The notes beneath the pieces are model-generated. The model was given only the letters and a program-made list of their open reading frames with translations, made no database searches and was not told the origin of the DNA. DNA of 23,140 nucleotides from a virus. Lineage: Duplodnaviria > Heunggongvirae > Uroviricota > Caudoviricetes. Of this stretch, positions 1 to 20,822 are shown in pieces (position 1 is the stretch's first letter; each line of letters begins with the position of its first letter). Where the stretch lies: the IMG/VR virus record IMGVR_UViG_2869924733_000002. The stretch is one strand, 5' to 3'. The translations under genes were made by a program, and so were the position numbers.

Positions 1-819
1 ATGTGTCAGGTATTTGGTGTATCCAGGAGCGGTTATTACAACTGGGTACAGCATGAACCCTCAGACAGAAAACAAAGTGATGAGCGGCTAAAACTGGAGA
101 TTAAGGTGGCACATATCCGCACTCGCGAAACATATGGAACCCGGCGGCTCCAGACGGAGCTGGCAGAGAATGGCATCATCGTTGGTCGTGACCGACAGGC
201 ACGTCTTCGTAAGGAGCTAAGGCTACGCTGTAAGCAGAAACGCAAGTTCAGAGCGACTACGAACCCGAACCACAATCTGCCAGTTGCGCCAAATCTGCTG
301 AACCAGACGTTCGCTCCTACAGCACCAAATCAGGTCTGGGTGGCGGACCTGACGTATGTTGCCACACAGGAGGGATGGTTGTACCTCGCTGGCATCAAAG
401 ATGTTTATACGTGCGAAATTGTCGGCTACGCCATGGGAGAGCGCATGACAAAAGAGCTGACAGGTAAAGCCCTGTTTATGGCGCTCAGGAGCCAGCGCCC
501 ACCTGCCGGGCTAATCCACCACTCTGATCGAGGTTCACAGTACTGCGCATACGATTACCGGGTCATACAGGAGCAGTCTGGTCTGAAAACATCAATGTCG
601 CGTAAAGGTAACAGTTACGACAACGCTCCGATGGAAAGCTTCTGGGGAACGCTGAAAAATGAGAGCCTGAGCCACTATCGTTTTAATAACCGGGATGAAG
701 CCATCTCAGTAATACGGGAATACATTGAGATTTTCTACAATCGTCAGCGTCGTCACTCTCGTCTGGGGAATATCTCCCCGGCAGCCTTCAGGGAAAAATA
801 TCATCAGATGGCTGCTTAA
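1..819 (+). CDS. IS3-family transposase OrfB (IS600-like, tentative); DDE integrase core
   Basis: 272-aa ORF with the IS3-family catalytic-core pattern (NQVWVADLTYV...HSDRGSQY...YDNAPMESFWGTLKNE...). Starts at the window edge, so orfA and the left end of the IS are outside the window. Family call is from motif memory, not a search. Confidence 0.85.
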   Translation: MCQVFGVSRSGYYNWVQHEPSDRKQSDERLKLEIKVAHIRTRETYGTRRLQTELAENGIIVGRDRQARLRKELRLRCKQKRKFRATTNPNHNLPVAPNLLNQTFAPTAPNQVWVADLTYVATQEGWLYLAGIKDVYTCEIVGYAMGERMTKELTGKALFMALRSQRPPAGLIHHSDRGSQYCAYDYRVIQEQSGLKTSMSRKGNSYDNAPMESFWGTLKNESLSHYRFNNRDEAISVIREYIEIFYNRQRRHSRLGNISPAAFREKYHQMAA

Positions 820-862
820 AAAAAGAACAAATGGTAGTGTCCGCTATTGCCAGTACACCTCA
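1..862 (+). mobile_element. IS3-family insertion sequence, right-hand portion (truncated by window start)
   Basis: Transposase ORF ends at 819. The sequence ending at 862 (ggtagtgtccgctattgccagtacacctca) reverse-complements to TGAGGTGTACTGG..., the TG...CA terminus typical of IS3-family inverted repeats. Exact end is approximate. Confidence 0.6.
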
Positions 863-996
863 CACGCCATAACGGACTATATCGTTGGATATTACAGCGC
901 ACTAAGACCGCACGAATATAACGGTGGGTTACCCCCAAACGAATCGGAAAATCGATACTGGAAAAACTCTAACTCGGTGGCCAGTTTTTGTTGACC
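863..996 (+). mobile_element. IS911-like 3' remnant (last ~43 codons of an OrfB plus terminal inverted repeat)
   Basis: In frame from 863: [43 protein letters not shown]-stop, recalled as an IS911-type OrfB C-terminus. 961-996 reverse-complements to TGAAGTGGTCAACAAAAACTGGCCACCGAGTTAGAG, an IS3-family-style terminal IR. The IS600-like element sits inside it. Confidence 0.55.
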
Positions 997-1512
997 ACTT
1001 CAATATGCAACGCCGGGTGGCATGGATAAACCCGGAAGAGAGTAAATCAAACCGCGCAATCGGCGTTGCGCTGAATGATACTGCATGTCGCGTTTTGAAA
1101 AAACAAATCGGGAATCATCACCGTTGGGTATTTGTGTACAAGGAAAGCTGTACCAAACCAGACGGAACGAAAGCGCCAACAGTAAGGAAGATGCGGTATG
1201 ACGCAAACAGTAAGGAAGATGCGGTATGACGCAAACACAGCCTGGAAAGCGGCGCTGAGACGAGCTGGTATTGATGATTTCAGATTTCACGACTTGAGAC
1301 ACACCTGGGCAAGTTGGCTGGTTCAAGCCGGAGTCCCGTTGTCAGGGTTACAGGAAATGGGTGGCTGGGAGTCTATCGAAATGATTCGTCGATATGCTCA
1401 CCTCGCGCCTAATCACCTTACCGAACACGCACGGCAAATAGACTCGATTCTGAACCCATCGGTCCCAAATTTGTCCCAGTCAAAAAATAAGGAAGGTACT
1501 AATGATGTGTAA
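997..1512 (+). pseudogene. Tyrosine recombinase (phage integrase) 3' fragment, truncated by IS insertion and frameshifted
   Basis: Begins directly after the IS911-like IR. Contains the catalytic-domain motifs [16 protein letters not shown] and [10 protein letters not shown] (H-x-x-R and the Tyr nucleophile). The frame switches between track ORFs 924..1229 and 1198..1512 at the 28-bp duplication. Confidence 0.8.
1179..1236 (+). repeat. Perfect 28-bp tandem duplication (2 copies) inside the integrase remnant
   Basis: cagtaaggaagatgcggtatgacgcaaa occurs at 1180-1207 and again at 1208-1235. 28 is not a multiple of 3, so it shifts the frame and produces the repeated peptide VRKMRYDAN in both track ORFs. 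Confidence 0.9.
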
Positions 1513-1738
1513 CTTATTGATTTTTGGGATAATAGGAACAATACACATAGGCGATAAGCTTTGTTTTTGTTGCCTTTTTTATTGTTCATTTTTTATAGAT
1601 ACCCCCAAAAGTACCCCCATATCTTTTTCCGCCCCTGAAATTTGGTTGTTATTCATACAGCATATCAGGCGGTAACGCTCTCCCTTTAACCCACTTATTG
1701 TATGATAGTGCTATCCCACAATAAGGAATCAGCCAGCC

Positions 1739-2098
1739 ATGAGAATGACCAGTCGCAAAAAAGAGATACTTAGCTACTTTGAACCGGATAACCTCGAATG
1801 GGTGACTGGTGAGATTGGTGCGCCGCCGTTCGATGTGTCGGGTGTGGCCTACCTGCTTCATGGCATGGTGTCGTTCGATAAGCGTCACCAGCTCGAATCA
1901 ACCCGGCGCACACTGGAAAGCATGGTTGCTGGTGGACTGCTTGAGCGGGTGACAGTGTATGAATCGCGCCAGATACGGCGCGGCGGTGATACTAACGCAA
2001 CGGTCGTGCGCTACGGTTTACCCGGTCAGTGCGCTGTTATGCGCGATACTGGCGGCGCTGACAACGCAATATCAGGTGAATACATGCGGGTCAGTTAA
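1739..2098 (+). CDS. Hypothetical protein (119 aa)
   Basis: ORF with an AGGA-type Shine-Dalgarno upstream (ataaggaatcagccagccATG) and a protein-like composition. Its 3' end overlaps the convergent gene 2091..2633 by 8 bp. No family recognised. Confidence 0.5.
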   Translation: MRMTSRKKEILSYFEPDNLEWVTGEIGAPPFDVSGVAYLLHGMVSFDKRHQLESTRRTLESMVAGGLLERVTVYESRQIRRGGDTNATVVRYGLPGQCAVMRDTGGADNAISGEYMRVS

Positions 2099-2633
2099 TA
2101 GCCTGCAATCTGTCGTTGATGCGGCTCAGGTCGTAAACCCGGCGTTCAATATCCAGCATCAGGAAATTGTGGATCTCGGCCTGCTCAGGATTATCAGACT
2201 CTCTGGCCTGTAATAGCAATTCATTGTAACCATGCAAGCCGCCTGAGTTTTCCGCCGGGGTGGTGCCTTTCCCACGCAGGCAGCTAATGGGCTGATTACT
2301 CGTATCGTGTGTTTGCTTCTCCAGCACAATGACGCAATCCCACCAGTCGCCAAAGTCATACGTGTAAACCAGCTTGTCACCCTCATTCTGGAGCGCCGCC
2401 CATAGTGGCGTGATTGCCGCGTTACCCATGCTTTCATCCTCACCCCATACGCGATACTCGCTACCTGGATCACCTTTACGCCCTTTCTCGAACATATACA
2501 GGTGTTCGTCATTCCAGCCAAAAGCTAACTGGATCACGGCATGAAGTTTACTAAAGGGGATTTGCTCTGGAACCAGCACACGCCGCCATATAGGTGGTTT
2601 GCTGTCTCGGATGGTTATCTTTAGCTGGTACAT
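2091..2633 (-). CDS. pRiA4b ORF-3-like family protein (plasmid/IS passenger protein of unknown function)
   Basis: 180-aa ORF with the recalled signature of this family (KITIRDSKPPIWRRVLVP...YTYDFGDWWDCVIVLE). Confidence 0.7.
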   Translation of the reverse strand: MYQLKITIRDSKPPIWRRVLVPEQIPFSKLHAVIQLAFGWNDEHLYMFEKGRKGDPGSEYRVWGEDESMGNAAITPLWAALQNEGDKLVYTYDFGDWWDCVIVLEKQTHDTSNQPISCLRGKGTTPAENSGGLHGYNELLLQARESDNPEQAEIHNFLMLDIERRVYDLSRINDRLQAIN

Positions 2634-2753
2634 GCAAATCCTGAATAAATGCGAATCGGAAGGATAACGATACTGACGTACTCACAATTCTGTAAAGGTG
2701 AATAAAGGAAATTTGCTTAATACGCATAAGTTACATGTGGAATAATCCCATAT

Positions 2754-2939
2754 CTACCTGCGCGGCGCTGGCTTCTTCCACTGGTAGGCAGGTGCTCGCA
2801 TCATTTCGCGGAACCTGTCGCGCCGGGCTATATCGGCATTAACTGATCGTTCTATCTCCCGTTGATCTGCCTGTGTAAGCTGGTGGCCTCCGTGCTCAAG
2901 TTTGGCGATGGTCAATAAGGCTATTTCGCGTGGTGTCAT
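2754..2939 (-). CDS. Small hypothetical protein (61 aa), paralog of 3750..3968
   Basis: MTPREIALLTIAKLEHGGHQLT... shares an almost identical N-terminal block with the product of 3750..3968 (TPREIELLTIAKLEHGGHQLS). GAGGG-type SD upstream. Function unknown. Confidence 0.55.
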   Translation of the reverse strand: MTPREIALLTIAKLEHGGHQLTQADQREIERSVNADIARRDRFREMMRAPAYQWKKPAPRR

Positions 2940-3236
2940 ACGTCATACCCTCTGGAAGGATGAAACACGCCCGGATTAAATTTCATTTTTCGCGGGTATA
3001 AAAAAACGATGGGGCGGGCAGTCCCGGATAGTCAGGGCTGTAGAGATTTGACTACCCCCTCCCCACTGGATTCAGGTTACTGCTATTCCGTTAAGCGCTG
3101 CTTACGGGGATAGCTGCGTTGTGATTTTGACCATTCAGGTCGCCGCTATTTCCTCACCGATTGGGTGCTACGCGCGCGCGTACTTGTCCCGAAATACCAG
3201 AAACCGCCAGCCAGAGGATGATTTCCCTCTGGTGGT

Positions 3237-3518
3237 CTACCTTTGCCTCTTGCCGCCATTTAACCGGAAGGCGTTACCGTTCGGTTGCGCTATCCCCATG
3301 CGGTGTTGCGTTTCGGTAACAGCTTTATGCAGGTCGCCAAATTCCTCAACCTTCACGGGCGGGCGCTTCACGTTCTCCAGACACGTTTCACGGCGGCGCT
3401 TTATCCATTCCCGATCATCGTCCTCGGTGCATAACAGCATGACTTCCATCCATCGTGCGGCAGCTCTCCGGTATAGCCCTTTTGACTCCAGCTCTTCAGC
3501 TTTCCTGTCCCTTATCAT
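3237..3518 (-). CDS. PerC-family transcriptional activator-like protein (93 aa)
   Basis: N-terminal block KAEELESKGLYRRAAARWMEVM matches the recalled PerC/Pch-family signature. Assignment is from memory of the family motif. Confidence 0.5.
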   Translation of the reverse strand: MIRDRKAEELESKGLYRRAAARWMEVMLLCTEDDDREWIKRRRETCLENVKRPPVKVEEFGDLHKAVTETQHRMGIAQPNGNAFRLNGGKRQR

Positions 3519-3554
3519 TTCTGCCTCTCAGATTATATAGATAAGCAAAAAGGT

Positions 3555-3675
3555 GTTGGTTCAGTTGGTTCAGTTGGTTCAATTTGTAAAGAGTATTGTT
3601 TTTAAAAGAATTATTCGCAAAAAGTGAACCAACACACCCCATTTTTGAACCAACAAAAAGAGGCCGTGAACCAAC
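3555..3675. repeat. Iteron cluster: GTTGGTTCA x3 in tandem plus three inverted copies (TGAACCAAC) at 21-bp spacing
   Basis: Tandem 9-mers at 3555-3563, 3564-3572, 3573-3581. Inverted copies at 3625-3633, 3646-3654, 3667-3675, each 21 bp apart. The same module is present in reverse orientation at 13139-13249. Confidence 0.8.
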
Positions 3676-3749
3676 ACGCCGTTTAAAAACCGCTAATTAT
3701 GAGGGACATCCACCAGCACAGGGCTTGTCTAGTGCTGGTTAGGTGCTGC

Positions 3750-3968
3750 TCACCGCGCACGGAGCGGCGCTGGTTTGCTCCAGCGATATGCGGGGCTGGT
3801 CATCATTTCGCGGTACCGCCTGGCTATTACAGGGCCCTCTGCCAGCTGGCGCCTTAATTCCCGCAGTTCTGCCGGGCTGAGCTGGTGGCCGCCATGCTCC
3901 AGCTTGGCAATGGTCAGCAGCTCGATTTCTCGTGGTGTCATGGATTCCCCTCTGATGGTGATCGGCAT
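3750..3968 (-). CDS. Small hypothetical protein (about 62-72 aa), paralog of 2754..2939
   Basis: Track ORF MPITIRGESMTPREIELLTIAKLEHGGHQLS...; the true start may be the internal Met at MTPREIELL. Confidence 0.55.
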   Translation of the reverse strand: MPITIRGESMTPREIELLTIAKLEHGGHQLSPAELRELRRQLAEGPVIARRYREMMTSPAYRWSKPAPLRAR

Positions 3969-4107
3969 TATATTGCTAGCCAGGGTGATTCTTCACTGGC
4001 CAGAGCCGTTGTGCGTGAAGTCTATGCGTGAACTCCATATGCTATGTGTTAAGTTACAGCTCAAAATGTCCTGTTCCGGTGGTAACTTTTTGGTAAACAG
4101 CGTTTTG

Positions 4108-4143
4108 GTGGATACCAACATGGATACCTCGCTTTTGGATACC
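4108..4143 (+). promoter_or_regulatory. Three direct repeats of TGGATACC upstream of the AlpA-like gene (putative operator)
   Basis: TGGATACC at 4108-4115, 4121-4128 and 4136-4143, 50-85 bp upstream of the ATG at 4193, in the divergent region between 3750..3968 and 4193..4378. Confidence 0.35.
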
Positions 4144-4192
4144 ACCCAAAGCCAGATTGTCACTATGCTTAATCTAAAGCAGAGGAGCCTCT

Positions 4193-4378
4193 ATGCGCCT
4201 TATCAAATTAAGCGAAGTCATGCTCAGAACGGGCTTCAAGAAAACGGCAATCTACTCATGGGTTAAGACGGGCACGTTTCCACAGCCAGTTAAAATTGGT
4301 AGATCAGCTAGATGGTCGCTTGAGGAGGTTGAAGCTTGGATCCAGAACAAACTTGATTCGCGGGCTGGCAACCAATGA
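4193..4378 (+). CDS. alpA: AlpA-family phage transcriptional regulator / excisionase-like protein
   Basis: 61 aa, MRLIKLSEVMLRTGFKKTAIYSWVKTGTFPQPVKIGRSARWSLEEVEAWI, the typical AlpA helix-turn-helix signature. SD AGAGGAG just upstream. Confidence 0.85.
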   Translation: MRLIKLSEVMLRTGFKKTAIYSWVKTGTFPQPVKIGRSARWSLEEVEAWIQNKLDSRAGNQ

Positions 4379-5342
4379 TTAGCTTTAATATCGAGTGGTG
4401 GATAGTCCATGGACAAGCTGATGGGCGCACTCGACGAAAACGATGCGCCAGGCGGACTGTGTCGCTCATAAACCGGGAGTTGGCCAGAGGACTTAGTTGT
4501 CCTTTGCAATTCTGCAGGTTCGCACGTGAAAGTAGCCAAAACCCTGCGAACCTGAGTGCAAACCTGCAACTGCGAACCACTGAGGTGGCCTCTCATAGCT
4601 GGTGGTCATACTGGATATTAATCAGGCCTGCCACAACCATAACAATCCATAACAGACGCATCGCACCAACAATTACTAATAGGTCCGCTCGCAACACTAA
4701 TTTTGACTAAGCCTGAACGCAATGCTCAGAAAGAACGAAGAATGGAATGAATCGTACCATCATGTTGCTCCATGATTTTTACGTTCAAGACAGTTGCTTA
4801 ATCTCGCCTCGCAATTCAGCCCCCTTGCCGTTATCGAGAAGTCTTTCTCCTTACGGTTAATGCTATCGGTCTTCATATTACCAGCAGCATACGCCATCCG
4901 ATTATTTCGATGCTACGCGCGCGTACTTGTCGCAAAATACCAGGCAAAGGCCAGATTCAGAACGTCGTGATAACCACCAGTACAACATGAGAGGTCATGT
5001 AACGCGATTTATCACACCAGATACATGTGATTGGTGTACCCGCATAAAACATCGTCATAGCGCGTCCTGTGCGCATATACGCCGATAATCAACACATCAC
5101 CACCACTCTGTCTCATGTAGAGAACAGTTTTATGGTATCCCCCCGCCATCGTGTGCATACTGGTCGGACGTAGTTGCAAAATTTTTTGCAACTGATACCC
5201 CTCGCGCGCGTACTTGTCTCGAAATTGGTGTTTTGCTGTGGCAGTGATATCAGAAAAATCTTCCTGTTTCACATAAAGCGGATATGCGCGTACTGTAACG
5301 GCCCCATCAACGGGGATCGGATTTGAAATCCCGACCCAAGCT

Positions 5343-5762
5343 ATGTACCAAATGCCATGTCTTGGATATATGATGATTGCCATTCTAAACAAAGCTAAAG
5401 GGAGGGTTGGTGTGAATGCTCAGGCTGTCATCATGGTTTTCCTTGGTCTGATTGTCGCAAAACTATATCCAGACTGGTGGAAAGGGGCATTAGCAACTGT
5501 CGCCATCTATTTGCTTTTATCCGTCGTTAAGCGATCGTTCGTTAAGACCGTAAATCAAGCAAAACGTTTCTCATTTAAGAATTTAATAAACTATATTACT
5601 GGGCTTATTTTTTGCCTTTCAATTTTGATCGCCTCAGCTTTTTTGCCCGTATCAATAGCTAATTTTTTTGGCGCACCATATGAGGTAGGTTATCTATTCT
5701 CTGTTTTTTGTCTTGTTCTTTCCCTTCTTTACCTATGGATGAGAGCAAAGAACAAAAATTAG
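5343..5762 (+). CDS. Small polytopic membrane protein, AT-rich (candidate superinfection-exclusion or immunity protein)
   Basis: Three to four long hydrophobic segments (VIMVFLGLIVAKL, LATVAIYLLLSVV, ITGLIFCLSILIASAFLPV, LFSVFCLVLSLLYLW). Likely true start is the in-frame GTG at 5412, 5 nt after GGAGGG at 5401-5406. Convergent with the end of the large operon. Confidence 0.55.
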   Translation: MYQMPCLGYMMIAILNKAKGRVGVNAQAVIMVFLGLIVAKLYPDWWKGALATVAIYLLLSVVKRSFVKTVNQAKRFSFKNLINYITGLIFCLSILIASAFLPVSIANFFGAPYEVGYLFSVFCLVLSLLYLWMRAKNKN

Positions 5763-5775
5763 CCATCCATGGCTA
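5751..5775 (-). terminator. Putative intrinsic terminator for the minus-strand operon
   Basis: On the minus strand, a TTAGCCATGGATGGCTAA hairpin (7-bp stem) is followed by TTTTTGT. It lies right after the stop of 5781..7879 and overlaps the stop codon of the convergent gene. Confidence 0.45.
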
Positions 5776-5780
5776 ACCAG

Positions 5781-7879
5781 TTATTGAGCTTCTTTTTGTG
5801 ATGCCTGTGCGACTCTGGTGAGCGATTGTGTGACCGTACTGATCGCTCTGTCATATGCTGTGCTACCTTTTGGCGTATTTGCCAGACGTAACAAGGCATT
5901 TCGTATAACAGGGCTTTCGTATGCCTTCGCTGCTCCGCCTACGGCACCAGCAGCAGGAACAACAAACGCAGCCGTTTTTAGCATCCCCGCTAATACTGCT
6001 GCGTTTATGATGCCACCACCAACTAACAATCCATAAAGCTGCTGACCATTTAAGTTTTGAACGTTCGCTTTTGCCGCGTGTCTTGTATCGTTGAGGTATT
6101 TAATAACGCCGTCCAGTTCCTTTCCATGTACGCCTTTAAAGAAAGTTGCTGATTGCTTCCTGTTCCGGTGTAACGCATTAATAAACTTCTCAACACTGAT
6201 ATTTCCAGACGGATCAGTCGCCTTATCTACAGCATTCTGAACTATGGCTGCTCGTGCGTTTTGCCTACCATTGTCATCCAGAAGCCTGTAAAGCTGAGAA
6301 CGTTCTGATGGGCTTTGGCTAAAAACGAGTTTTGTTACATCCTCAGGCGTGGCCTTGCCGCTGGCTATTGCCTTTTGAACGCGCGTTCTTCCCATCATGT
6401 CATTGAATTTAGACCATGAGCGATCAACCCTTGCCATATTAATGGCTTCGTCTGCTCCAAGATTTTTGGCTACGGCTTTTTTCATATCCGCCGTATATGC
6501 CTTGTAGATAATATCGCTGGCTTTCTGGAGCGTATCTTTATCAACAGTGTCAGATGACGCCATAAATCGCTTTCGAAGATCGGTTCTGTTTTCCCTCGCC
6601 AGACGCAGGTCATTTGGTCCGCTGGTGATATCGTCTTTAAATTGCTGCAAGACTTTTACCGCGGCTCTATCCTGAGATTTGCCCGGGCGGCTTAACACGG
6701 CAATCTGATTGTCGATAGCTTTTACCGTGTTTGAGAGATCGACAGGGGTATCCCCCATAGCGTCAATTATGCGGTTATATCGCTTTCCTGCTGCCTCAAT
6801 GAATTTTTGTTGCCCTTTAGTCGCAGATTCATAAAGCTGTTTATCAGAAATGCCACCCAGACCATCGCTAAATGTTCTGACTAAATTTTCTCGTGCTTGT
6901 TGTTGATTCAGCCGATTCTTACCGGTTCCAAAAAAAGGAACTCTTTCGCCTAATGTCTGAGCCTGACTCTGCATAAAGGTTTTATCTTTCAGCATGTCAC
7001 TGGTCATTAACGGCAGATTTCTTTCCGATGCAAAGTCGACAGCAGCCTTTGCTTCAGGCGACATATCACCACGAACAGCCCTCGAAACCGCACTCGCTGT
7101 ATTTTCCAGCCCCTTACCAATACCACCAATGCCAGCAGAAATTACCGTTTGTAACGGATCAATATCTTCTCCACCAGCAAGGCTGGTGGCTCCCTGTAGT
7201 GCTAAATCTGTAGCTGCTGATTTTCCTATAGCACCAAGCACCGTTCCAGCCCTGCCCACTGGTGTAAACGCCAACGCATTAGCAAGAAACGAAGTCAGGT
7301 CTTGCGGTGATAAACCCGGCTTGTTCAGGGCATAATCACCTGATGGCAGAGAAACGATAGTATTCCCCTTCTCATCCTGCCTTAATGTCGCCCCCATTCC
7401 CTGAAGAATCTTTTCCTGAGACGCGTCAGAGCCGAAAAGTTGAGACCATCCAGCCTTTAGGGCATCCATGCTTAGTGAGTTCAATTCTGGGGCAGAGGTG
7501 ACATTTTGCAGTCTCTCCATCTCTGGAGTCATTCGGCTTTCGCCTGTTATAGCATCGCGCATCGCAGCCCCAAGACTGGCTCCCTGTTCTGCTGAACGCT
7601 CAAGCCCCTCTCTTTGCTGAGTAGCTAACTTTGCATACCCTGACGCAAGAGAATTATCAGATGATGTATGTTGAATATTTTGAGTTGCTGATTGGGATCG
7701 GTCTATTTCATTCGTTGATGGTAGTGGATAGGCAGCATAAAAAGCCTGCTTAGCCTGCTCTACACTTTCTCCGGCTTGCGGGGCAACGACTTCATTGAAG
7801 TATTGCTCCTGAGCCTGCGCTTTTTGTTCTGGTGCTAACGCCTGATACTGTGGAGAGGCGATAACATCTTTCCATGCTT
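5781..7879 (-). pseudogene. Large alpha-helical protein (about 701 aa when reconstructed), cut from its start codon by an IS insertion; DNA-ejection/internal-virion-protein-like (tentative)
   Basis: Track ORF 5781..7562 stays open upstream to 7879. Removing the IS (7882-8797) and one TA copy joins it to ATG GC at 8800-8804, giving MAKAWKDVIASPQYQ... in frame with a TAATG overlap to the upstream gene. Has a hydrophobic Gly/Ala-rich segment near the C-terminus. Confidence 0.6.
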
Positions 7880-7941
7880 TAGGCTGTGTCCCTTAATCAT
7901 CTGAGCTATAGTAACTGTCTGTTTACACAACATATTGAACT

Positions 7942-8391
7942 ATGGCTCGCTACGACCTTCCCGATGAGGCATGGACCATCATCAAGCCCCTGTTACCTCC
8001 TGAACCCGCCACACCACGGGCCGGACGCCCATGGGCTGAGCACCGTAAAATCATCAATGGCATGTTCTGGGTGTTATGTTCCGGTGCACCATGGCGCGAT
8101 TTACCCGAACGATATGGGTCATGGAAAACTGTTTATAACCGCTTTAACCGATGGTCAAAGTCAGGCGTGATTAATATTATTTTCAACAGGTTGCTTTCGC
8201 TACTTGATGCAAACGGCTTTATTGACTGGTCTGCCACCGCGCTGGATGGCAGTAATATCCGGGCGCTGAAATGTGCCGCCGGTGCTCAAAAAAACATCCC
8301 GATATCGACGGAGATAATGGGCCGGGTCGCTCTCGCGGCGGTTTTGGCACCAAAATCCATCTGGCAACAGACGGAAGTGGCCTCCCGTTAA
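7942..8391 (+). CDS. IS5-family transposase OrfA (N-terminal part)
   Basis: MARYDLPDEAWTIIKPLLPP... is the N-terminal domain typical of two-ORF IS5-family transposases. Overlaps OrfB in the -1 frame. Confidence 0.8.
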   Translation: MARYDLPDEAWTIIKPLLPPEPATPRAGRPWAEHRKIINGMFWVLCSGAPWRDLPERYGSWKTVYNRFNRWSKSGVINIIFNRLLSLLDANGFIDWSATALDGSNIRALKCAAGAQKNIPISTEIMGRVALAAVLAPKSIWQQTEVASR

Positions 8392-8786
8392 ATATCGTGC
8401 TAAGCCCCGGACAAGCTCATGAAAGCCAGTTCGCGCAACGACTTCTGGACGGGATTGGCGTTCAGCGTCAGAACGGCAGCATGAAACGCCGTGGACATGC
8501 GGTACTGGCTGATAAAGCGTATTCAGGGCGCGCATTGCGCAACGAGCTGAAAAATAACGGTATAAAGGCAGTAATCCCCCGAAAGTCAAATGAGAAAATG
8601 GCATCGGATGGACGTGCACAGCTTGATCGTGATGCGTACTGCAATCGTAATGTCGTTGAACGGTGCTTTGGGCGGCTGAAAGAATATCGCCGCATCGCCA
8701 CGCGTTACGACAAAACGGCGAGAAATTACCTGGCGATGGTGAAACTGGGCTGCATCCGACTCTTTTATCAACGCTTACGTAATTAA
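8271..8786 (+). CDS. IS5-family transposase OrfB (DDE domain); probably expressed as an OrfAB fusion by -1 frameshift
   Basis: DDE-type motifs (GGFGTKIHLATDGSGLP..., DKAYSG, VERCFGRLKEYRRIATRYDK). An A7 run at 8288-8294 lies in the OrfA/OrfB overlap. Confidence 0.8.
   Translation: MCRRCSKKHPDIDGDNGPGRSRGGFGTKIHLATDGSGLPLNIVLSPGQAHESQFAQRLLDGIGVQRQNGSMKRRGHAVLADKAYSGRALRNELKNNGIKAVIPRKSNEKMASDGRAQLDRDAYCNRNVVERCFGRLKEYRRIATRYDKTARNYLAMVKLGCIRLFYQRLRN
8288..8294 (+). other. Candidate programmed -1 ribosomal frameshift heptamer (AAAAAAA) in the IS5-family transposase
   Basis: OrfA reads caa aaa aac; OrfB reads tca aaa aaa cat, shifted by -1 over the same A-run. Confidence 0.5.
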
Positions 8787-9887
8787 GGGACACAGCCTAG
8801 CCATTAATCACCCCATAGTGAAGAAAAGTTACTGCTGGCTGCTGGCTGTGATACCTGCTCAGATTGCGGCAATGTCTGCGACGAAGAAGAAGTTCCTCTG
8901 TCAACTGCTGAAATAACCCGCAAAGCATCATAAGCTCGACCAGAAGCAGCTTTCAGCGAATTGAACTGGTTTTCCATCTTCCGGCGCTTGGTATCAATGG
9001 TTTTTGTGGAGTCGCCAGGCTGAGGGAAATACATTTGATAATATTTTGACATTTCAGCAGGTGCGATAGCTGCCCCTGTTTCCTGACGGAGTATTGCCAT
9101 TATTGCGTCATTAGCATTAACAACGTATTGCTGCTCTGTTGGGCTGAGCGTTAAGTTAGCCAGCGTCCCATTACCCAAAGCATTATTAATGATCGCCACT
9201 CGCTGTGGGCTAAGCTGGTCTTTCAGTGTATCTATTGAATCAAGAGCATCCCTAACCCTGTATGCAAATCCAGCAGCTTTTTTAGCCCCTTCTGGCGACT
9301 TTTCCATGATCTTTTGGGCTGTTGGCAAAGCTATTGGACGAAACCCATCTCCAGATATTGGCTGGTTTAGTTTTCCCTGCTCTTCACTTCCGTCTGTGTA
9401 GTATTTTGTGACAGTGCCATCATCGTTTTCTCTAACACTCATTAATTTTTTGGCGTTTGTATTAATTCCAGCCGCTGCCGCAAATGCCGCCGCCCCCTCT
9501 GGATCCGCCTTTAACATTTGAGCGTACTGATTGTAATTCTGCATTGCTGCTGTTGGTGCATATGCTGACGTTAACGCATTTGCTCGGCTAATATCCTGCC
9601 CTCTCGCCTGAAGTGCTTCGCCAGCCTGATTGCTGCGGATTGTCTCTGCCAACTTGCCACGCTCAATATCCCGACCTTCCATTTGATCTTTGATATCGAA
9701 ATACTTCTCATGACCGAGAGAAAACAGTGCCATACTACCAGCAAGCCGCTGGAATCCCTGTGGATCATTAACATGCATTTCGGCAACAGACTCAGGAGAA
9801 ATTCCCAAGCGACGCATTTCATCTTCGTTATCTGCTATGAATTTTCCAAATGCCCCAGTTCCGAGCGAAGATGCGATTTGAGCACTA

Positions 9888-11040
9888 AATAGCTGCGCTT
9901 AATACCGCTACACTTTTGCCAGTCCATGTTTGCCTCCGGGGAATGGGCTGACGGTTTCCATAAAATGGCGAACTTTTTTCAACAGTTGCCACATTGAGCG
10001 GCACTGATGATTACGCGTTATTGTGTCGTGAAGTGCCTGCCATAGCCGTTCAACATGATTCACCCATGGCGAGTAAACCGGCTGATAAATGACCCTGAAC
10101 TTCGGGTTCTCCTTCAGCCAGCTCTGTGTTTCCCGGCTTTTGTGGATAATGTAGTTGTCCACGATCAGCGTGATGGTTTTCGCCCGACGGTATGTCGCTT
10201 TAAGCCGCTTCAGCAGGCTGATGAACAGCGCCGAACTTTTGCTGTTGCCGCCCACATAGCTGACTTTACCTGTCCCGCTGTGCAGCGCTCCGGCCAGATA
10301 ATATTTTTCATTCTGTCCCGGCGTGACCACCCGTTTTTGCTGTCCGCGCAGTTGCCAGTCCGCACCGATTTTGGGATGAAGATGGATATCCACTTCATCT
10401 TCATAAAAGACCGGATGCTCTGCGCTGCATTCGTCCAGTGCTTTATGGATTGCTGCCATCTTTTCATCTTTATGCGGGTCACGGATACGCAGAGTTGGCG
10501 CAGCCCTTCGCCACACAATCCCCGCAGACGGCAACCAGCGGCGAACGGTTCCGGCATTTAACTGGCAACCGGTTATCTCATTGATTTTTATTGCCAGCAG
10601 TTCTGTACTCCAGCGTGAACGCTGGTAGCCAAAGTCGCCGGGAGAATGTTTTACCAGCTCACGTAACAGTGTGCAGATATGCTCAAACGGCCAGCGACGG
10701 GCACGCCCGGCAGGTAATGATTTCAGTCCCTCAACACCCGACTGCGTGAACCAGTTAATCCAGCGTCCAACAGAGGAACGGGCGCAGCAGAGCGTTCTGG
10801 CAACGTCGCTGACACGGTCGCCCCGGTGCAGCATCAGCATGGCAGTCAGTCTGCGGGCATAATTTTTATCGTGTGTTTTATGGATGGCTTTCTGCATCAG
10901 GCGTCGTTCGTCACGGGAAATTGGTGCTATGATCGGCATTGCTCAGTCCGGTTGGTGATTTGTTTTGATTTGGCGATTGATCAGATCGCACAATCCGGGC
11001 TAAGTTCCCTCAAAATGATCTACTATTCCGCGCAGCTATT
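9888..11040 (-). mobile_element. IS630 (1153 bp) inserted at a CTAG target with TA duplication
   Basis: Terminal inverted repeats: aatagctgcgc at 9888-9898 and its reverse complement gcgcagctatt at 11030-11040. TA at 9886-9887 and 11041-11042. Length is exactly 1153 bp, matching the recalled IS630 size. Confidence 0.9.
9908..10939 (-). CDS. IS630-family transposase (343 aa)
   Basis: Full-length 343-aa ORF inside the IS630 boundaries, recognised as the Tc1/mariner-like IS630 transposase. Confidence 0.9.
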   Translation of the reverse strand: MPIIAPISRDERRLMQKAIHKTHDKNYARRLTAMLMLHRGDRVSDVARTLCCARSSVGRWINWFTQSGVEGLKSLPAGRARRWPFEHICTLLRELVKHSPGDFGYQRSRWSTELLAIKINEITGCQLNAGTVRRWLPSAGIVWRRAAPTLRIRDPHKDEKMAAIHKALDECSAEHPVFYEDEVDIHLHPKIGADWQLRGQQKRVVTPGQNEKYYLAGALHSGTGKVSYVGGNSKSSALFISLLKRLKATYRRAKTITLIVDNYIIHKSRETQSWLKENPKFRVIYQPVYSPWVNHVERLWQALHDTITRNHQCRSMWQLLKKVRHFMETVSPFPGGKHGLAKV

Positions 11041-11379
11041 TAGTCGCAAGATGACCAATAGAATTTCTCTGGTCGTCATCAATAAAGCCCATCCCTTTCT
11101 GAACGCTTTCAAATTCTTCTGGATACTCAGAAATAAGACTGCGCATTTTGTTTCTGTCTCCAGACTCAAAAGCCCCGGCATATGCTTTCTGAAACTCTGC
11201 TTTACGCTGTTGTTGACGTGCCTGCTGATTAATCTCAGCAACGCCTCTTAGCCCCTGTAGCGCCATTAAACCTACGTTTGGGTGCTGCTGATACTGCACA
11301 GGCTGAGGAACGGAAGAACGAGGAGCATTATCATTTTGCGGTGCCATGCTAGGCAGCCCGCCAAGTTGCCATGTCGCCA

Positions 11380-12057
11380 TTAGAATCCAAGCCCCCCAAC
11401 AAGACCAATAAGCCCACCACCAATAGCCCCGGCGACATTACCTATACCCGGAACAACGGAACCAAGTTGCGCACCCGCTAAAGCGCCTGATGCCGCCCCA
11501 CCAATACCACGCGCAAGACTGGATGGCTGCTGCGCCTGACCTGCACGAATAGCGCCAAGCCCCTGCAAGAGTTGCCCGGTATTATTGGCGTAGTTTTGCC
11601 CTGCTGTTGCCTGCCCTGATGCCGCATTCATCCCGACATTTAGCAGGTTTCCATAATTTTGCATTTGCCCACTGAGCCAATTGTTATAAAGCATGGGCGC
11701 AATGGAAGATAACTGGTTACTGGTAGCTGTTGAGCCAAGCCCCCCGGTAGCTTCTGCTGAGACAAGGTTCTGATAACGGGCCTGATCTGCCTGTGTTTTA
11801 TATAAACCAGAACCAAAGAAATCATTCGCGGCTTTATTCTGCCCTTCCAGAGTCATCAGTCCTTGCAGTTGTTGTAAAGCAGGCAATCCGACTTCTGCAT
11901 ACGGCTTGAGATTATTCATCACCGTATTCCACTGCTCGCGCTGCAAATCAATTGCCTGCTGCTGGGCCTTCGCCTGAGCTTTAGAGGCACCACCATCACC
12001 GCCTTTTTCGTATACGGCACGATTGAGATGTTTATGAGCTATATGGGTAATTAACAT
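11380..12057 (-). CDS. Hypothetical protein (225 aa) with Gly/Ala-rich glycine-zipper C-terminus; ejection-protein-like (tentative)
   Basis: C-terminal ...GIGGAASGALAGAQLGSVVPGIGNVAGAIGGGLIGLVGGLGF. Stop overlaps the next start (TAATG); start overlaps the upstream gene by 7 nt. Confidence 0.65.
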   Translation of the reverse strand: MLITHIAHKHLNRAVYEKGGDGGASKAQAKAQQQAIDLQREQWNTVMNNLKPYAEVGLPALQQLQGLMTLEGQNKAANDFFGSGLYKTQADQARYQNLVSAEATGGLGSTATSNQLSSIAPMLYNNWLSGQMQNYGNLLNVGMNAASGQATAGQNYANNTGQLLQGLGAIRAGQAQQPSSLARGIGGAASGALAGAQLGSVVPGIGNVAGAIGGGLIGLVGGLGF

Positions 12058-12512
12058 TCGCTGAATTCCTTATATTGTTGCCGAGTTAACTGATAAAGCG
12101 TTACGCCGACGGGTTTACCACATCTGATATAAGCATCATCAAGGTGACCAACACGGGTAGCGCCAAGCAAACGGATAATTGCCCGTCCATATTTCGTGGT
12201 GTCAGGAACCATAGTGATGCTGTTAAGGAATGGTGAGTTTTCGAGAAGCCATTTGCAGAATAATCGATGCCCTTGCAGTGCATATTCACCACGGAATCCG
12301 GGGTCGTACACCGCATGGCATTCAACAACGCTATGCCAGAAGTTACGCACTTCATGAACGCCAGCCAGCACTAATCCTTCGTAGATGCCGAGATATACCG
12401 CATCAGGCTTGATGTAGTACGTGTGCCCCGGCTCAACAATATTTTCGGTATTGCCTGGCTCGTTAAGAAAGGCCTGTAATCGCACAGGGTTATCAATAAA
12501 TTTTAGTTCCAT
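12051..12512 (-). CDS. Hypothetical protein (153 aa), first large gene of the operon
   Basis: ATG at 12512 lies 16 bp after the stop of the 53-aa ORF. Protein-like composition; no family recognised. Confidence 0.6.
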   Translation of the reverse strand: MELKFIDNPVRLQAFLNEPGNTENIVEPGHTYYIKPDAVYLGIYEGLVLAGVHEVRNFWHSVVECHAVYDPGFRGEYALQGHRLFCKWLLENSPFLNSITMVPDTTKYGRAIIRLLGATRVGHLDDAYIRCGKPVGVTLYQLTRQQYKEFSEC

Positions 12513-12528
12513 GCGATGCCATCCATTT

Positions 12529-12690
12529 TCACATACAGCCTGCCAGCGCCTTATCTATTAACCCTCGTGCAATTTCATGCAGAGTTGGCGCTACTCCAAT
12601 TCCTGATTTTTTACGCTGCTCTTCCTGAATTTTCTTTATCGCTTCCATTTGCTTCTCACTTATCAATACCGGCTTTACTGAAATAGCCAT
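12529..12690 (-). CDS. Small protein (53 aa), possible ribbon-helix-helix-type regulator
   Basis: Not in the ORF track (shorter than 60 aa). ATG at 12690 is preceded by AAGGGGG. Translation MAISVKPVLISEKQMEAIKKIQEEQRKKSGIGVAPTLHEIARGLIDKALAGCM has a short N-terminal strand followed by helices. Fold assignment is inference. Confidence 0.4.
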   Translation of the reverse strand: MAISVKPVLISEKQMEAIKKIQEEQRKKSGIGVAPTLHEIARGLIDKALAGCM

Positions 12691-13138
12691 AACGCCCCCT
12701 TATAACTGTATAAAACAACAGTTATTATAGTTTCACAAATCGCAATATTCATCATCGTAATTGCAGAATATGAAACAAATAGCACAAAAAAATGCCACCG
12801 CTCAGTAGCTGGTGGCGTCGTTCTGTGTGTCAGGTTTTGACAGGTTTTTTATGGACTCTAAAAACTATATTTATGGTGTCGCATTACTCTTCACGGCAGG
12901 CGCTTTTCAGTTCTGCCCTTGCTTCTGGCTCCATTGGTAATTTGATTCGCGATCAGCTATGCGGATGGTTTGCTGAACAGGCATAACAACTTCTCAGAGG
13001 CTGTTTTTTGAACTACGAAAATTTCGTAGTGCTCACTTTCAAAAACGTCACGCCCTTGTACACAGGATTTTACGAAAGTCTCGTAAAACACTCTCTGATG
13101 CCAGCCAGGTGTTGTGCGCATCAATTCAGTCACATTGT

Positions 13139-13249
13139 GTTGGTTCAAAATACCGTGTTGTTGGTTCAGTGTTGGTTCAATAAAAAGAATAAAATCCTTA
13201 TAAAACAATACCATTTACAAATTGAACCAACTGAACCAACTGAACCAAC
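13139..13249. repeat. Iteron cluster immediately 3' of the primase-helicase gene (crr/ori-like)
   Basis: GTTGGTTCA at 13139-13147, 13160-13168, 13171-13179, then TGAACCAAC x3 in tandem at 13223-13249. Reverse complement of the module at 3555-3675, including an identical core of about 45 bp. Confidence 0.8.
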
Positions 13250-13274
13250 ACCTTTTCTACGCACATGAAGAAGC

Positions 13275-16034
13275 TCATTCTTCAGATGAGTTATAATCTC
13301 CTGGCTGGTAATTGAGTACATAAACGTTTATTTGTCGTCCCTGAATACGTGGTGATTTTCTTTGGTATCCACGACCGCTGTTTGGTGGGGTTAGCATCCC
13401 GGCTTTTTTCAACACTTCAGCAAACTGTTTTGCGTTGAAACCACATGCGATCTCCTTTTCAAATGTGGCCGGGAATGTGTAGAAAATCATTGGGCTTTCG
13501 TCATGTTCTCCACGCTGACGGTATCCGGCTAAATCTTTGATGGGCAAATCTGCCGGGCTGTATGGAAATGGTGCAAAACGGCTAAGCCCATAGGCATTAA
13601 GAAATGCCTCCGTTTGTTCAATAATCTGCTGATGTTCTTTGTTACCTGTGCCGAACTCGCGCAACCATGCGTTATAGCTGTGCTGTATCGCATCACGGCA
13701 TGTCTGAGCATCCCAGCCTGTTACAACCTCGCCTAACAGCAATGCGGCCTCCAGAATGGCAAATCGCGCGGCTACACGGTGAACCTGCTCACCATAATCG
13801 GATGGGATCAGGTTTCTCCATCTGCTTTCGCAATCACGAACGGTTTTAATAGCCTGTTGCTGGTGGTCTGCCAGCCATTTAATCCACTCACGCCCGGCTG
13901 CGCCGTGGTGATGCTGGTAAGCGTCTTTCAGTGCGTCTGCGTGCTGTTTTCCGTTCTGGTAATCGTGAAAGCGTACTGCTTTACTCAACGGAATATTCAG
14001 CAGTCGCACCAGTTGCCCGGCTTTGGTTTTTCGCCCGGAAGTAGCGATAAATGTTTCTAAATCCATTTCTCCGGTGCTGATTGCCACTGTACGCCAGCGT
14101 TTTAGATCCCGGTTTCCACCATCTTTAGCGCCTTGCAGTTTCCCTACACCGTTAAATAACGCATAGGCAGACTGTGAAACGCTGACAGGATCAGCGCCCT
14201 GACCAACTTCATCAAGCGGCATTAGTCCGTCATTGTGGGCGGCGGCCTCATTTGCCAGCCCCAGCGCGGTTCCGTACCACGTCAGCCGCAGTAAATCAGG
14301 GTTGCCGTATAAGCTGCTCGCCACGTTTGCCGTGGTGGTCTTACCTGCGCTCGACTGCTCATAGAAATGAATGCCGAACCCGTCAGCGCCCACCAGCCCA
14401 ATCAATGGCGCTGCCAGTGCTGCGCCGATCCCGGTCATCATTGAATAGTTACCAAAGGCCAGACGCGCCACGTTATCACGCCAGCTTTTCGCGCTCCCTG
14501 AGACGGTATATCCGGCTGCGGCTGAGCTTCTCCCGCTGAACAGCACAGGATTTTCAGGTGTTCCGATGATTTCCCCATCAGGCATGATGTACGCTCCGCA
14601 TTGCCAGCCAGTGGCATGAGCAACACGCCACAATTCACGAGAGCCACTGCGTTGTAGCCAGTCTGCCAGTATTGCTCTGAGGCTGCTTTTGGTCGTGACA
14701 TTTACCCCACCAGCTTTAAGTGTGCGCCATCCTTCACGTTCACCAATATCAGCCAGTGGAATGGCAGCGGTTGTCGGCGTTTCAGAACCAAACGACAGCC
14801 AGCGAAGAATGAGATACTGGTCTTTATCGTCTCTGCCAGTACCGATAACGCTTAACGGAGAACATAACCAGCTTTCGTTATTGATGATTTCTCCACTCTG
14901 GCTGTCAGCTCTCGGAGATACCCAATAAATACCATCCTCGCGGCTTTCTATTCTTGGTTTCAGTGGGTCGGTATCCATAACCTTAAAATCGCTTCCCTCA
15001 ATGGTCTGTGGCTCCTGTTTCACGCCATTACCCTGTGGTTGGTACATTGACTTATTGAACGCTTCTGTGGCGCATTTAATGCCGTGTTTTTGGTGGTAAT
15101 CATTCCAGTCTGCTTTGTGATCTGTCGGGGGTAATGCCACCCATCCAGAAACAGATAAAGCTGCTTTTTCTGCTGCTATTCTCCCCGTGTTTTGTCTTCC
15201 TTCGCTGTGGTCGTTATCCGCAGCAATGATGATTTGTGCTGAAGGAAATTTATCCCGCAGTACCTGGGCGACATATAACAGGTTCCCGGCATCAATCGCC
15301 GCCACTGTCAGCGCCTCTGGACGAATTAAATGGGCAGATAATGCCGTTGCCAGCCCTTCTGCGATTAAGATGCTCTGTGTTGTTTCTGGCGCGTTTATGG
15401 CGTGATATGCCCCCCGCTTTGCTGAACCTGTCAGGAGTCTTTTTTCACCATGTGATGTAATAGTCTGTGCTGCTGTGACTGCGCCGGATTTATCCACCAG
15501 CGCCAGCAACAGAGATCCATCGGGCAACACGGGGAATGTAAAATCACCTACCCCTTTCGCAACCAGATAATCAGATTTGCCGTTTACAGCCTTTCTGCGC
15601 ATGTCATCAAACTGACGGGAAAACGTATCCCGTCTTTGTTGTTCGTCCTTCTCTGCCCTTTTCAGGCGCTCCTGTTCGCGTCGCTGGCGCTCGGTTTCCA
15701 GTTGTTCCCGTTTCTGGCTGGTGGCTTCTGGTGTTTCCGTTGTCCGGTAATCAATACCCAGAACATCAGCGGCAAGAAGCGCCGCCTCTGTTGTGTCGCA
15801 GTTATTTACGCGTTTAATTAAATCCAGCCCATCACCAGCGCCGCACTGATTACAGATGAAGCTACCGCGCCCGTTGTCATCGAACCGGAATCGATCTTTG
15901 CCCCCACATGCAGGGCAGGGAGCATGACGGCGCGGAGAGTCAGGGACATTTATGTTCAGGCAGCCCAGCACATGAGGCCAGTTGTTTTCAGACGCACTGA
16001 TAACCTGACGGATAAGATCAATGTTTCGCATCAC
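13275..16034 (-). CDS. P4 alpha-like bifunctional DNA primase-helicase
   Basis: 919 aa. N-terminal Cys-rich zinc-binding motif (CPACGGKDRF...CNQCG), primase-like acidic motif (IIIAADNDHSEG), then a P-loop (EQSSAGKTT) in the helicase part. Start is GTG at 16034 or ATG at 16031. Confidence 0.9.
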   Translation of the reverse strand: MMRNIDLIRQVISASENNWPHVLGCLNINVPDSPRRHAPCPACGGKDRFRFDDNGRGSFICNQCGAGDGLDLIKRVNNCDTTEAALLAADVLGIDYRTTETPEATSQKREQLETERQRREQERLKRAEKDEQQRRDTFSRQFDDMRRKAVNGKSDYLVAKGVGDFTFPVLPDGSLLLALVDKSGAVTAAQTITSHGEKRLLTGSAKRGAYHAINAPETTQSILIAEGLATALSAHLIRPEALTVAAIDAGNLLYVAQVLRDKFPSAQIIIAADNDHSEGRQNTGRIAAEKAALSVSGWVALPPTDHKADWNDYHQKHGIKCATEAFNKSMYQPQGNGVKQEPQTIEGSDFKVMDTDPLKPRIESREDGIYWVSPRADSQSGEIINNESWLCSPLSVIGTGRDDKDQYLILRWLSFGSETPTTAAIPLADIGEREGWRTLKAGGVNVTTKSSLRAILADWLQRSGSRELWRVAHATGWQCGAYIMPDGEIIGTPENPVLFSGRSSAAAGYTVSGSAKSWRDNVARLAFGNYSMMTGIGAALAAPLIGLVGADGFGIHFYEQSSAGKTTTANVASSLYGNPDLLRLTWYGTALGLANEAAAHNDGLMPLDEVGQGADPVSVSQSAYALFNGVGKLQGAKDGGNRDLKRWRTVAISTGEMDLETFIATSGRKTKAGQLVRLLNIPLSKAVRFHDYQNGKQHADALKDAYQHHHGAAGREWIKWLADHQQQAIKTVRDCESRWRNLIPSDYGEQVHRVAARFAILEAALLLGEVVTGWDAQTCRDAIQHSYNAWLREFGTGNKEHQQIIEQTEAFLNAYGLSRFAPFPYSPADLPIKDLAGYRQRGEHDESPMIFYTFPATFEKEIACGFNAKQFAEVLKKAGMLTPPNSGRGYQRKSPRIQGRQINVYVLNYQPGDYNSSEE

Positions 16035-16389
16035 CGTACCCCACGTGGTCTATAGCGTTTGCGATATGGCTAACCAGCATCTGCCACTTGGTTATTCCGT
16101 AATCAGTCAGCATGCCATCATTGTTTAGCCACATATCAAATTCAGCGGTTGTCGCAAGTTTCCACTTATCGCCGTGGACAGTCCTCATTGCTGGGTACAT
16201 GAATGCGCAAATCAGATCACAAACATCTGACGGCTTCAGAGATGTAGTAATGGTGCGTCCCTCTGGCGTCTGAATTGCCATTTTCTCTTCACCAGTAGAA
16301 TGAAGGTTATGAATCCACACAGCACCAGCAATCTTTGCCACCTGCTCTCCGATTGCGGAGCTAAGCGCCATTTCTGCATTTTCACGCAT
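16018..16389 (-). CDS. Hypothetical protein (123 aa)
   Basis: Strong SD (GGGAGG) before the ATG at 16389. Overlaps the primase start. Confidence 0.6.
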   Translation of the reverse strand: MRENAEMALSSAIGEQVAKIAGAVWIHNLHSTGEEKMAIQTPEGRTITTSLKPSDVCDLICAFMYPAMRTVHGDKWKLATTAEFDMWLNNDGMLTDYGITKWQMLVSHIANAIDHVGYGDAKH

Positions 16390-16723
16390 GAGAACCTCCC
16401 GCTACAGTTGCGCCCATGTCATTAACCATGCTTTGCCATATCTCACGCCCGACGTCAGTCAATCCGTCCTTAGTGACGCAACGCTCAAGAAGCTCGATCC
16501 CCACGGTTTCCCACTGCGGGTAGAACACTTTCATGGCTGCCAGTGTGTAGCTATCGATCAGGCTGCGAACGCCTTTTACTCCATTAACGATTTCCACACG
16601 TACGGCCTCGCCGTCCGCATCAACCATGAAATAGTCCCCGCCGCTGGTGGAGGTAATGTGGTTATACAGTGCCGACGCATACTTATTTGCCAGCGCATTC
16701 AGTCGGAAATTTTTAGTAATCAT
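16382..16723 (-). CDS. Hypothetical protein (113 aa)
   Basis: SD GAGGATGGAG before the ATG at 16723. Overlaps the downstream start by 8 nt. Confidence 0.6.
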   Translation of the reverse strand: MITKNFRLNALANKYASALYNHITSTSGGDYFMVDADGEAVRVEIVNGVKGVRSLIDSYTLAAMKVFYPQWETVGIELLERCVTKDGLTDVGREIWQSMVNDMGATVAGGSHA

Positions 16724-16733
16724 GGCTCCATCC

Positions 16734-20063: not shown

Positions 20064-20075
20064 TTTCAGTCTCCG

Positions 20076-20704: not shown

Positions 20705-20822
20705 GTTTACTCCTATATTCTGTCATCTTCTTTAATGGACATCAGTAGACAGAAAGGAGATTAAACAAACCGGTGAATGGGTGATAGCGGATAAAAATAA
20801 AATATTTTTTTGAGAAGATTAT

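Follow-up and report, generated by a model that had tools for sequence, protein, structure and literature searches.

The window, by which we mean the whole stretch of 23,140 nucleotides analysed here (IMG/VR record IMGVR_UViG_2869924733_000002), carries near its left end a PerC-like gene that lies beside a cluster of short repeats and between two small genes resembling each other. The initial annotation placed these three genes within 2754-3968 and interpreted them as a prophage-borne activator of host virulence held in a small recombining cassette. The layout raises the question of what kind of element these genes belong to, and of whether the flanking copies account for the position of the PerC-like gene. 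We conclude that the locus is most probably the accessory end, away from the integrase, of a phage-inducible chromosomal island (PICI) of the EcCIMP1 type, a satellite of phage Kapi1, and that this, together with the working model set out below as a whole, is the best explanation of the observations.

The carrier element

EcCIMP1 is a PICI of Escherichia coli MP1 that is mobilised by the P22-like phage Kapi1, and helper-dependent excision and transfer have been demonstrated for this island with its helper (Pick, Stadel & Raivio, ISME J 2025; PMC11773190). Three blocks of the window align to it: 1525-5337 at 99.4% nucleotide identity, with homology starting at 1525, 11220-20698 at 98.4%, and the integrase portion at 21950-23140, also at 98.4%. 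The att core TCCTATTATC, the same as that published for EcCIMP1 (PMC11773190), has one exact match in the window, at 1528..1537 on the minus strand, and marks the integrase-distal end of the island. The RefSeq accessions of the first small protein, smallA (WP_000188903.1), and of the PerC-like protein (WP_000617443.1) are common to MP1 and the window-like strains, and the primers published for the cloning of EcCIMP1_025 correspond to window positions 3518 and 3237, both ends of the PerC-like reading frame. A further correspondence is provided by alpA_1 (EcCIMP1_023; 4193..4378, plus strand), which encodes an AlpA/excisionase-like helix-turn-helix protein (Pfam Phage_AlpA, E=1.9e-13), is divergent from the second small gene, smallB, and agrees in place and orientation with the published description; the island does not need it, yet it is able to replace the Kapi1 excisionase (PMC11773190). 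On the strength of the identity blocks, the att core, the accessions, the primer matches and the alpA_1 correspondence, we read the window as one island, a variant of EcCIMP1 that extends from 1528 to beyond 23140. The carrier is thus a PICI, 99.4% identical to EcCIMP1 over 1525-5337, and not the prophage that had been supposed.

The gene content points in the same direction, with an integrase, alpA, a primase with an adjacent iteron origin, an att site, a length of about 20 kb and neither capsid nor lysis genes, as in EcCIMP1-type PICIs. The canonical alpA near the integrase gene would fall inside the 11220-20698 block that is homologous to MP1. Read along the minus strand, the order is primase, the primary iteron cluster (ori II), cargo of P22-type ejection proteins, smallB, a second iteron cluster (ori I), the PerC-like gene, smallA and a pRiA4b ORF-3 gene, while alpA_1 lies on the opposite strand between cargo and smallB. 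The primase/helicase of the island (13275..16034, minus strand; Zn-ribbon, Toprim_3 and DUF927) and the integrase at the right window edge (21926-23140) are accompanied by AntA, Ash and the cargo genes, the latter resembling P22 gp7/gp20. Next to smallA is the gene for the pRiA4b ORF-3 family protein (2091..2633, minus strand; PF07929, E=1.1e-42). The terminal block contains hyp119 (1739..2098, plus strand), which is convergent with the leftward genes and encodes a conserved 119-aa protein with no Pfam, NCBIfam or PADLOC match; hyp119 and the att core close the island end. A tRNA search of the window found none.

Both small genes, ori I, the PerC-like gene (EcCIMP1_025), alpA_1 (EcCIMP1_023), the att core, primase, Ash, AntA and integrase are common to the window and EcCIMP1. 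The two differ in their cargo, since the region at about 5337-11220 is a different variant with an IS630-type (DDE_3) transposase, in a DUF6387 gene that stands in place of EcCIMP1_002, and in the left neighbour of the island, which in the window is an IS3 element with an integrase fragment. With the IS630-type insertion in its cargo, the window copy may be impaired in transfer. EcCIMP1_002, called 'UvrB-like' in the paper, was considered as a third small paralog and is both unrelated and missing from the window. The small paralogs and the iterons go unmentioned in the same paper (PMC11773190). About 100 complete E. coli chromosomes contain a 3.3-kb region spanning the locus at more than 99% identity, and none of the phage records searched does.

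The PerC-like gene and the small paralogs

The 93-aa product of the PerC-like gene (3237..3518, minus strand), identical to EcCIMP1_025, matches Pfam PF06069 over profile positions 1-85 of 90 (E=3.7e-30, 104.5 bits, cutoff 22.6), which bears out its initial assignment to the PerC family. The virulence activation attributed to it does not hold. When carried on pTrc99A in Citrobacter rodentium, this exact reading frame silenced a LEE1-lux reporter in a dose-dependent manner, whereas perC of EPEC activates the same reporter (PMC11773190); the silencing was obtained by overexpression in a heterologous host. Activation of LEE1/ler, the function that gave the PerC family its name, is therefore not displayed by EcCIMP1_025 in the literature (PMC11773190). 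The authors of the EcCIMP1 study proposed an ANR-like action instead (PMC11773190). Residues 5-50 match the NCBIfam ANR model NF033650 (ANR_neg_reg) at E=1.6e-7 and 31.1 bits, below the curated cutoff of 32, a borderline score that appears compatible with a shared N-terminal module and with the authors' suggestion. We contend that 'PerC' should not be read here as 'virulence activator', as the sole effect tested for this protein is the opposite.

PerC homologs are frequent in Gram-negative PICIs (PMC11773190; PMC6092414). Those on plasmids and phages are about 35-57% identical to the protein of the window, often over the N-terminal half only, with the closest plasmid match reaching 66%. The gene is placed straight after the iteron cluster in the window and, among the related islands fetched, in L009, L047, L016 and L018; in L010, L013, L015, L019 and L020 it begins 11 nt past an SSB stop codon, and a Shine-Dalgarno sequence lies in between. 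These two settings indicate that PerC is a member of the replication-proximal region and no free-standing moron.

The two genes around it encode small basic proteins. The product of smallA (2754..2939, minus strand) is a 61-aa helical-hairpin protein annotated as 'hypothetical', and smallB (3750..3941, minus strand) is its 63-aa paralog, with a reading frame that can be extended to 3968 (72 aa). Both reading frames of the 61-72 aa range given in the initial annotation are present, though smallB is most likely 63 aa long and starts at 3941, because its homologs are uniformly 63 aa, a GAGGGG Shine-Dalgarno sequence (3952-3947) lies 5 nt upstream of the ATG at 3941, and the ATG at 3968 overlaps a TATAAT hexamer. 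The suspected paralogy holds well past the N-terminal block, with 62% identity across all 61 residues (BLASTP E=1e-26).

Given that smallB is annotated as 'none' at the matching position in many RefSeq genomes, that NCBI PGAP often skips it or calls an opposite-strand reading frame, and that neither small reading frame has a domain match, both could be taken for chance reading frames or for conserved DNA or RNA features of the origin region. We consider this barely credible. The length is constant at 61-63 aa over more than ten genera, a Shine-Dalgarno sequence stands at the correct spacing, and an Rfam search of 1400-5400 gave no match. Selection at the protein level is evident from a dN/dS of about 0.2 with saturated dS: between smallA and smallB, dN/dS is 0.14 and dS 2.4 (saturated), and the family median of dN/dS is 0.23 over 106 pairs. 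Within the N-terminal 21 codons of the pair, nine have synonymous differences. The AF2 model of smallA, built with 25 homologs, is of high confidence (pLDDT 91.8) and predicts a helical hairpin with helices at 3-16 and 23-47, followed by a conserved tail, PAYxWxKPAPRR; counted from the sequence, 13 K/R against 8 D/E give a net charge of about +5. As far as sequence comparison can establish, smallA and smallB are shown to be genuine protein-coding genes and ancient paralogs under purifying selection.

A word-indexed search recovered 115 clusters of 61-63 aa (fragments and extensions aside), all from Enterobacterales and all 'hypothetical'. A profile run exhaustively against 1.84 billion representatives gave 39 matches at E<=1e-3, short except for two giant proteins that are probably spurious, and found no longer or multidomain relatives. 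There was no informative match in Pfam, NCBIfam, PHROGs or PADLOC, the lone PHROGs match being phrog_7271 (function unassigned; E=2e-6), and a PDB sequence search and Foldseek against PDB and BFVD returned non-significant helical matches only (best E 1.4-1.6). No match was obtained by tblastn of smallA against 50,697 phage records, and a literature search by protein accession found nothing. These searches show, at the level of homology, an orphan family confined to Enterobacterales islands of this kind.

When one genome per species was scanned, 34 small-gene loci were obtained, onto which the proteins of the window were mapped. One arrangement keeps returning, with int followed by alpA, primase, ori, PerC, variable cargo, the small gene, in some cases pRiA4b, convergent hyp119 and the island end; it is shared by Kluyvera, Atlantibacter, Lonsdalea, Enterobacter, Cedecea, Shimwellia, Buttiauxella, Pantoea, Serratia, Erwinia and Rahnella. 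A primase lies no more than 10 kb from the small gene at 20/34 loci and hyp119 at 15/34, in each of the latter convergent with the small gene and downstream of it; over the same distance, a pRiA4b gene is found at 7/34, positioned after smallA. Two diverged small copies around PerC are seen in the E. coli EcCIMP1 type only, among the loci fetched.

This distribution bears on whether the small proteins are dedicated partners of PerC, for instance an anti-activator/adaptor pair, so that the trio would form one regulatory device. The genes neighbour one another in EcCIMP1-type islands and in L010-L013, L019, L020 and L023, and the proteins are small and helical throughout. We nevertheless hold such a device to be quite unlikely, as a PerC homolog lies within 10 kb at just 12/34 of the cross-genus loci, and many islands have 1.2-6 kb of cargo between PerC and the small gene, with PerC tightly coupled to the upstream SSB gene instead. 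Small genes of Leclercia and Pantoea occur without PerC altogether, and the two families have no profile similarity (hhalign probability 0.1%) and are unrelated.

Exchangeable blocks and the duplicated origin-like cluster

Under the interpretation proposed initially, PerC would be a virulence-activating moron in a cassette bounded by duplicates that serve as recombination substrates. The paralogs do stand in the same orientation on both sides of PerC, and PerC alleles have clearly been swapped among islands, the breakpoint lying some 84 nt inside the gene. The copies are, however, only about 69% identical at the nucleotide level and within the coding sequence only; their flanks are unrelated, and the flank alignment through which the idea was to be checked gave no DNA similarity. 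The nine synonymous differences in 21 codons and the dS of 2.4 indicate that there has been no recent gene conversion between smallA and smallB. Among 5,426 complete E. coli genomes, matches to a smallB probe are either at least 90% or 60-80% identical, with none between, and the lower class consists of cross-matches to smallA; the gap between the classes implies that these genomes have no A/B hybrid or intermediate alleles.

Natural variants also separate the parts of the supposed cassette. The numbers of genomes covering at least 80% of the respective probe were 338 for the smallA block, 328 for PerC, 154 for the smallB block and 103 for the whole 3.3 kb. NT1W22, GPEC1258 and D5 have primase, in some cases SSB, then PerC, smallA, pRiA4b and hyp119, without smallB, while fS58a lacks smallA and carries alpA_1, smallB, ori I, a different PerC allele and then a 254-aa gene that is unrelated. 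The alternative PerC allele has only the first ~84 nt and ori I in common with the window. L011 matches the window over 1694-3518 at 98%, with homology stopping at the PerC ATG, and Leclercia has 3548-4000 in common with it and nothing else. These comparisons show, at the level of aligned sequence, two exchangeable blocks, one with hyp119, pRiA4b, smallA and PerC (1694-3518) and the other with ori I and smallB (3548 to ~4000), and each small-gene copy belongs to a different one. Exchange between islands is frequent, judging by these alignments, and its junctions are at PerC and the origin, outside the small genes.

The layout around PerC thus results from modular recombination among related islands and not from a repeat-bounded cassette; flanking homology sufficient for recombination, or recombinase sites, as a mobile cassette of that kind has, were not found. 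With similarity that stops at the edges of the coding sequences, saturated dS, no hybrids, variants that separate the parts, block edges at the PerC ATG and ori I, and an EcCIMP1_025 that silences LEE1 (PMC11773190), the cassette with its virulence moron is highly improbable.

The iteron cluster noted beside PerC is present as described. Six exact copies of the octamer GAACCAAC occupy 3555-3675, in the interval that separates the smallB stop codon from the start of PerC, and the whole window contains 12 against 0.67 expected. The cluster, ori I (3548..3680), consists of three GTTGGTTCA at 9-nt spacing, an AT-rich spacer and three TGAACCAACA at 21-nt spacing. It aligns to the reverse complement of the primary cluster, ori II (13139..13249), immediately downstream of the primase gene, including a stretch of about 59 identical nucleotides, and so represents a second, inverted copy of the origin-type cluster of the island. 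On the other side of smallB, the divergent smallB/alpA_1 control region contains three direct repeats TGGATACC(A) (4109..4144, plus strand). In Leclercia L028, smallB is preceded by GGTATCCA x4, the same octamer as in the TGGATACC repeats of the window, and followed by a different iteron, TGGGATAA, in five copies.

Secondary GAACCAAC clusters are usually no more than 400 bp away from a small gene, as in the window (E. coli), Leclercia L005-8 and L027, Lonsdalea L016, Serratia oryzae L030 and Pantoea coffeiphila L026. The last of these is a serine-recombinase element without a primase in 20 kb, where a 1,251-bp unit of iterons, small gene and a convergent ribbon-helix-helix-like gene occurs twice in tandem. 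Cargo separates the two iteron clusters in L016 and L017, and they abut in L014, L015, L018 and L035; in the latter compact-origin islands the small gene is 1.4-6 kb away from the iterons. A smallA that is 100% identical occurs in L010 and L012 with a different primase and without a GAACCAAC cluster, which argues against sequence-specific iteron binding.

Working model and known systems

Consensus scans of 2750-4200 called no promoter or terminator. A TATAAT hexamer at 3967..3972 (minus strand), 25 nt upstream of the ATG at 3941, is a candidate -10 element for a smallB transcript, read directly from the sequence, and was missed by the scan because its -35 element is weak. A second hexamer, TATAAT at 3537-3532, was considered as a PerC promoter and is doubtful, as it is 13 nt from the ATG and too near to it to keep the Shine-Dalgarno sequence in the transcript.

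In our working model, a leftward smallB transcript would start at about 3960 from the candidate promoter at ~3972-3967, read through ori I into PerC and probably continue into smallA and pRiA4b. The PerC-like protein would modulate other regulators or H-NS-silenced promoters as a small protein of the ANR/PerC type. The small proteins would be basic binding adaptors in the life cycle of the satellite itself, possibly tied to the secondary origin, and our guess favours a role there, in replication control or incompatibility, over one in host virulence.

A bolder form of this idea can be put forward as a rather unlikely speculation, namely that the direct-repeat operator, the small gene and the iteron cluster form a self-standing replication-control or incompatibility module, that the hairpins are a new class of origin-associated satellite regulators, and that the two paralogs provide EcCIMP1 with two specificities. 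The settings in which the putative module is seen vary, being beside PerC in the window, free of a primase in Leclercia and in tandem in the Pantoea serine-recombinase element.

The locus is ordinary and largely known, since the element and its PerC-like gene have already been published (PMC11773190). Modest new leads come from the orphan small-protein family and from the inverted second copy of the origin, both absent from the literature searched. The satellites concerned are the abundant and poorly understood 'Type C' PICIs, which have no recognisable packaging genes, and should the small proteins affect replication, incompatibility or the exploitation of helpers, the satellite biology of Enterobacterales would gain a component.

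Several known systems resemble parts of the locus. The PerC-like protein is similar to the ANR family (AraC negative regulator, Aar-like) in its residues 5-50 and in its repressing phenotype; it differs in being 93 aa long, with a conserved C-terminal half that is missing from the 54-position ANR model. With PerC of the EPEC pEAF plasmid and Pch of EHEC prophages it has the full-length PF06069 match in common, including the N-terminal motif LExKGLYRRAAxRWxEV, whereas its gene is carried by a satellite beside an origin copy and silences LEE1 instead of activating it. Phage P4 has ori and crr as a separated pair with one primase, and the two separated clusters of the window, served by one primase, recall that arrangement. 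By analogy, a module of the kind speculated upon above would resemble P4 Cnr/crr or iteron titration of the plasmid incA type. P4 details are also alluded to in the description of PICI origins, which comprise two sets of iterons around an AT-rich region in a canonical place after the primase gene (PMC6092414). Both clusters of the window, in each of which the two iteron sets are opposed, have the layout of these Gram-negative PICI origins, exemplified by the pri-rep-ori region of EcCICFT073 (Fillol-Salom et al. 2018, PMC6092414), and the island is set apart from them by the second of its two predicted origins, an inverted copy 9.5 kb away from the first.

Iteron clusters in the window and in other genera

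Two inverted copies of the island's origin-type iteron cluster, each with six GAACCAAC octamers, are located at 3548-3680 and 13130-13260 of the window, where they bracket the cargo at a separation of 9.5 kb and have an identical stretch of ~59 nt in common. Two inverted iteron clusters are not mentioned in the paper on the satellite EcCIMP1 (PMC11773190). In other genera, versions of the iteron cluster are split, abutting, or primase-less. In the Pantoea coffeiphila locus (L026 9500-12200), a 1,251-bp unit adjoining a large serine recombinase occurs twice in tandem, and a primase is absent from the 20 kb around it. Each copy comprises a GAACCAAC iteron cluster along with two genes, one of the small family and the other convergent and coding for a 142-aa ribbon-helix-helix-like protein.

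Genes and repeats around smallB, alpA_1 and PerC

RefSeq/PGAP calls are inconsistent over the region of the small-family gene smallB and the AlpA-like gene alpA_1 (window 3750-4380) as well as in two further loci (L001 16403-16871 and L046 11402-11560). SmallB is often left uncalled, or an overlapping plus-strand ORF is called instead (WP_233142077.1), and alpA_1 is annotated with a length of 159 bp, whereas the ORF with the full AlpA domain match has 186 bp. The intergenic region between the two genes harbors three direct repeats of TGGATACC(A) (window 4109-4144), located 49-84 bp ahead of the alpA_1 start codon (ATG), and the TGGATACC octamer also occurs four times upstream of smallB in Leclercia (L028 9739-9795). 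These repeats may represent an operator for either an AlpA-like protein or the small protein.

In many related islands, the SSB stop codon (...FDDEAPF*) is separated from the PerC start by an 11 nt gap with an intervening GGGAG Shine-Dalgarno sequence (L010 6294-6310; L013 ~8500; L015 ~4050; L019 ~8320; L020 ~1800), an arrangement which suggests that PerC is translationally coupled to the replication module.

Cargo, island ends and comparison with MP1

An IS630-type transposase with DDE_3 and HTH domains (window 9908-10939) adjoins a P22 injectosome translocase-like gene that is present as a C-terminal fragment (8804-9817), and thus the ejection-protein cargo appears to be interrupted in the window copy.

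Left of the att core (window 1-1537), a neighbouring island persists as a remnant, with an IS3-family orfB at 1-819 and, at 1198-1512, a fragment covering the C-terminus of a tyrosine integrase. The latter overlaps a second ORF (924-1229), and the same 10-residue stretch is found in both, suggesting a short duplication or a frameshift. This left neighbour is unlike the one in MP1, the E. coli carrier of EcCIMP1. At the opposite end, a DUF6387 gene (20902-21783) lies between the integrase gene and the MP1-homologous block starting at ~20698, whereas in MP1 the position corresponding to 20698-21950 is filled by EcCIMP1_002 (71 aa), the gene mis-annotated as 'UvrB-like'.
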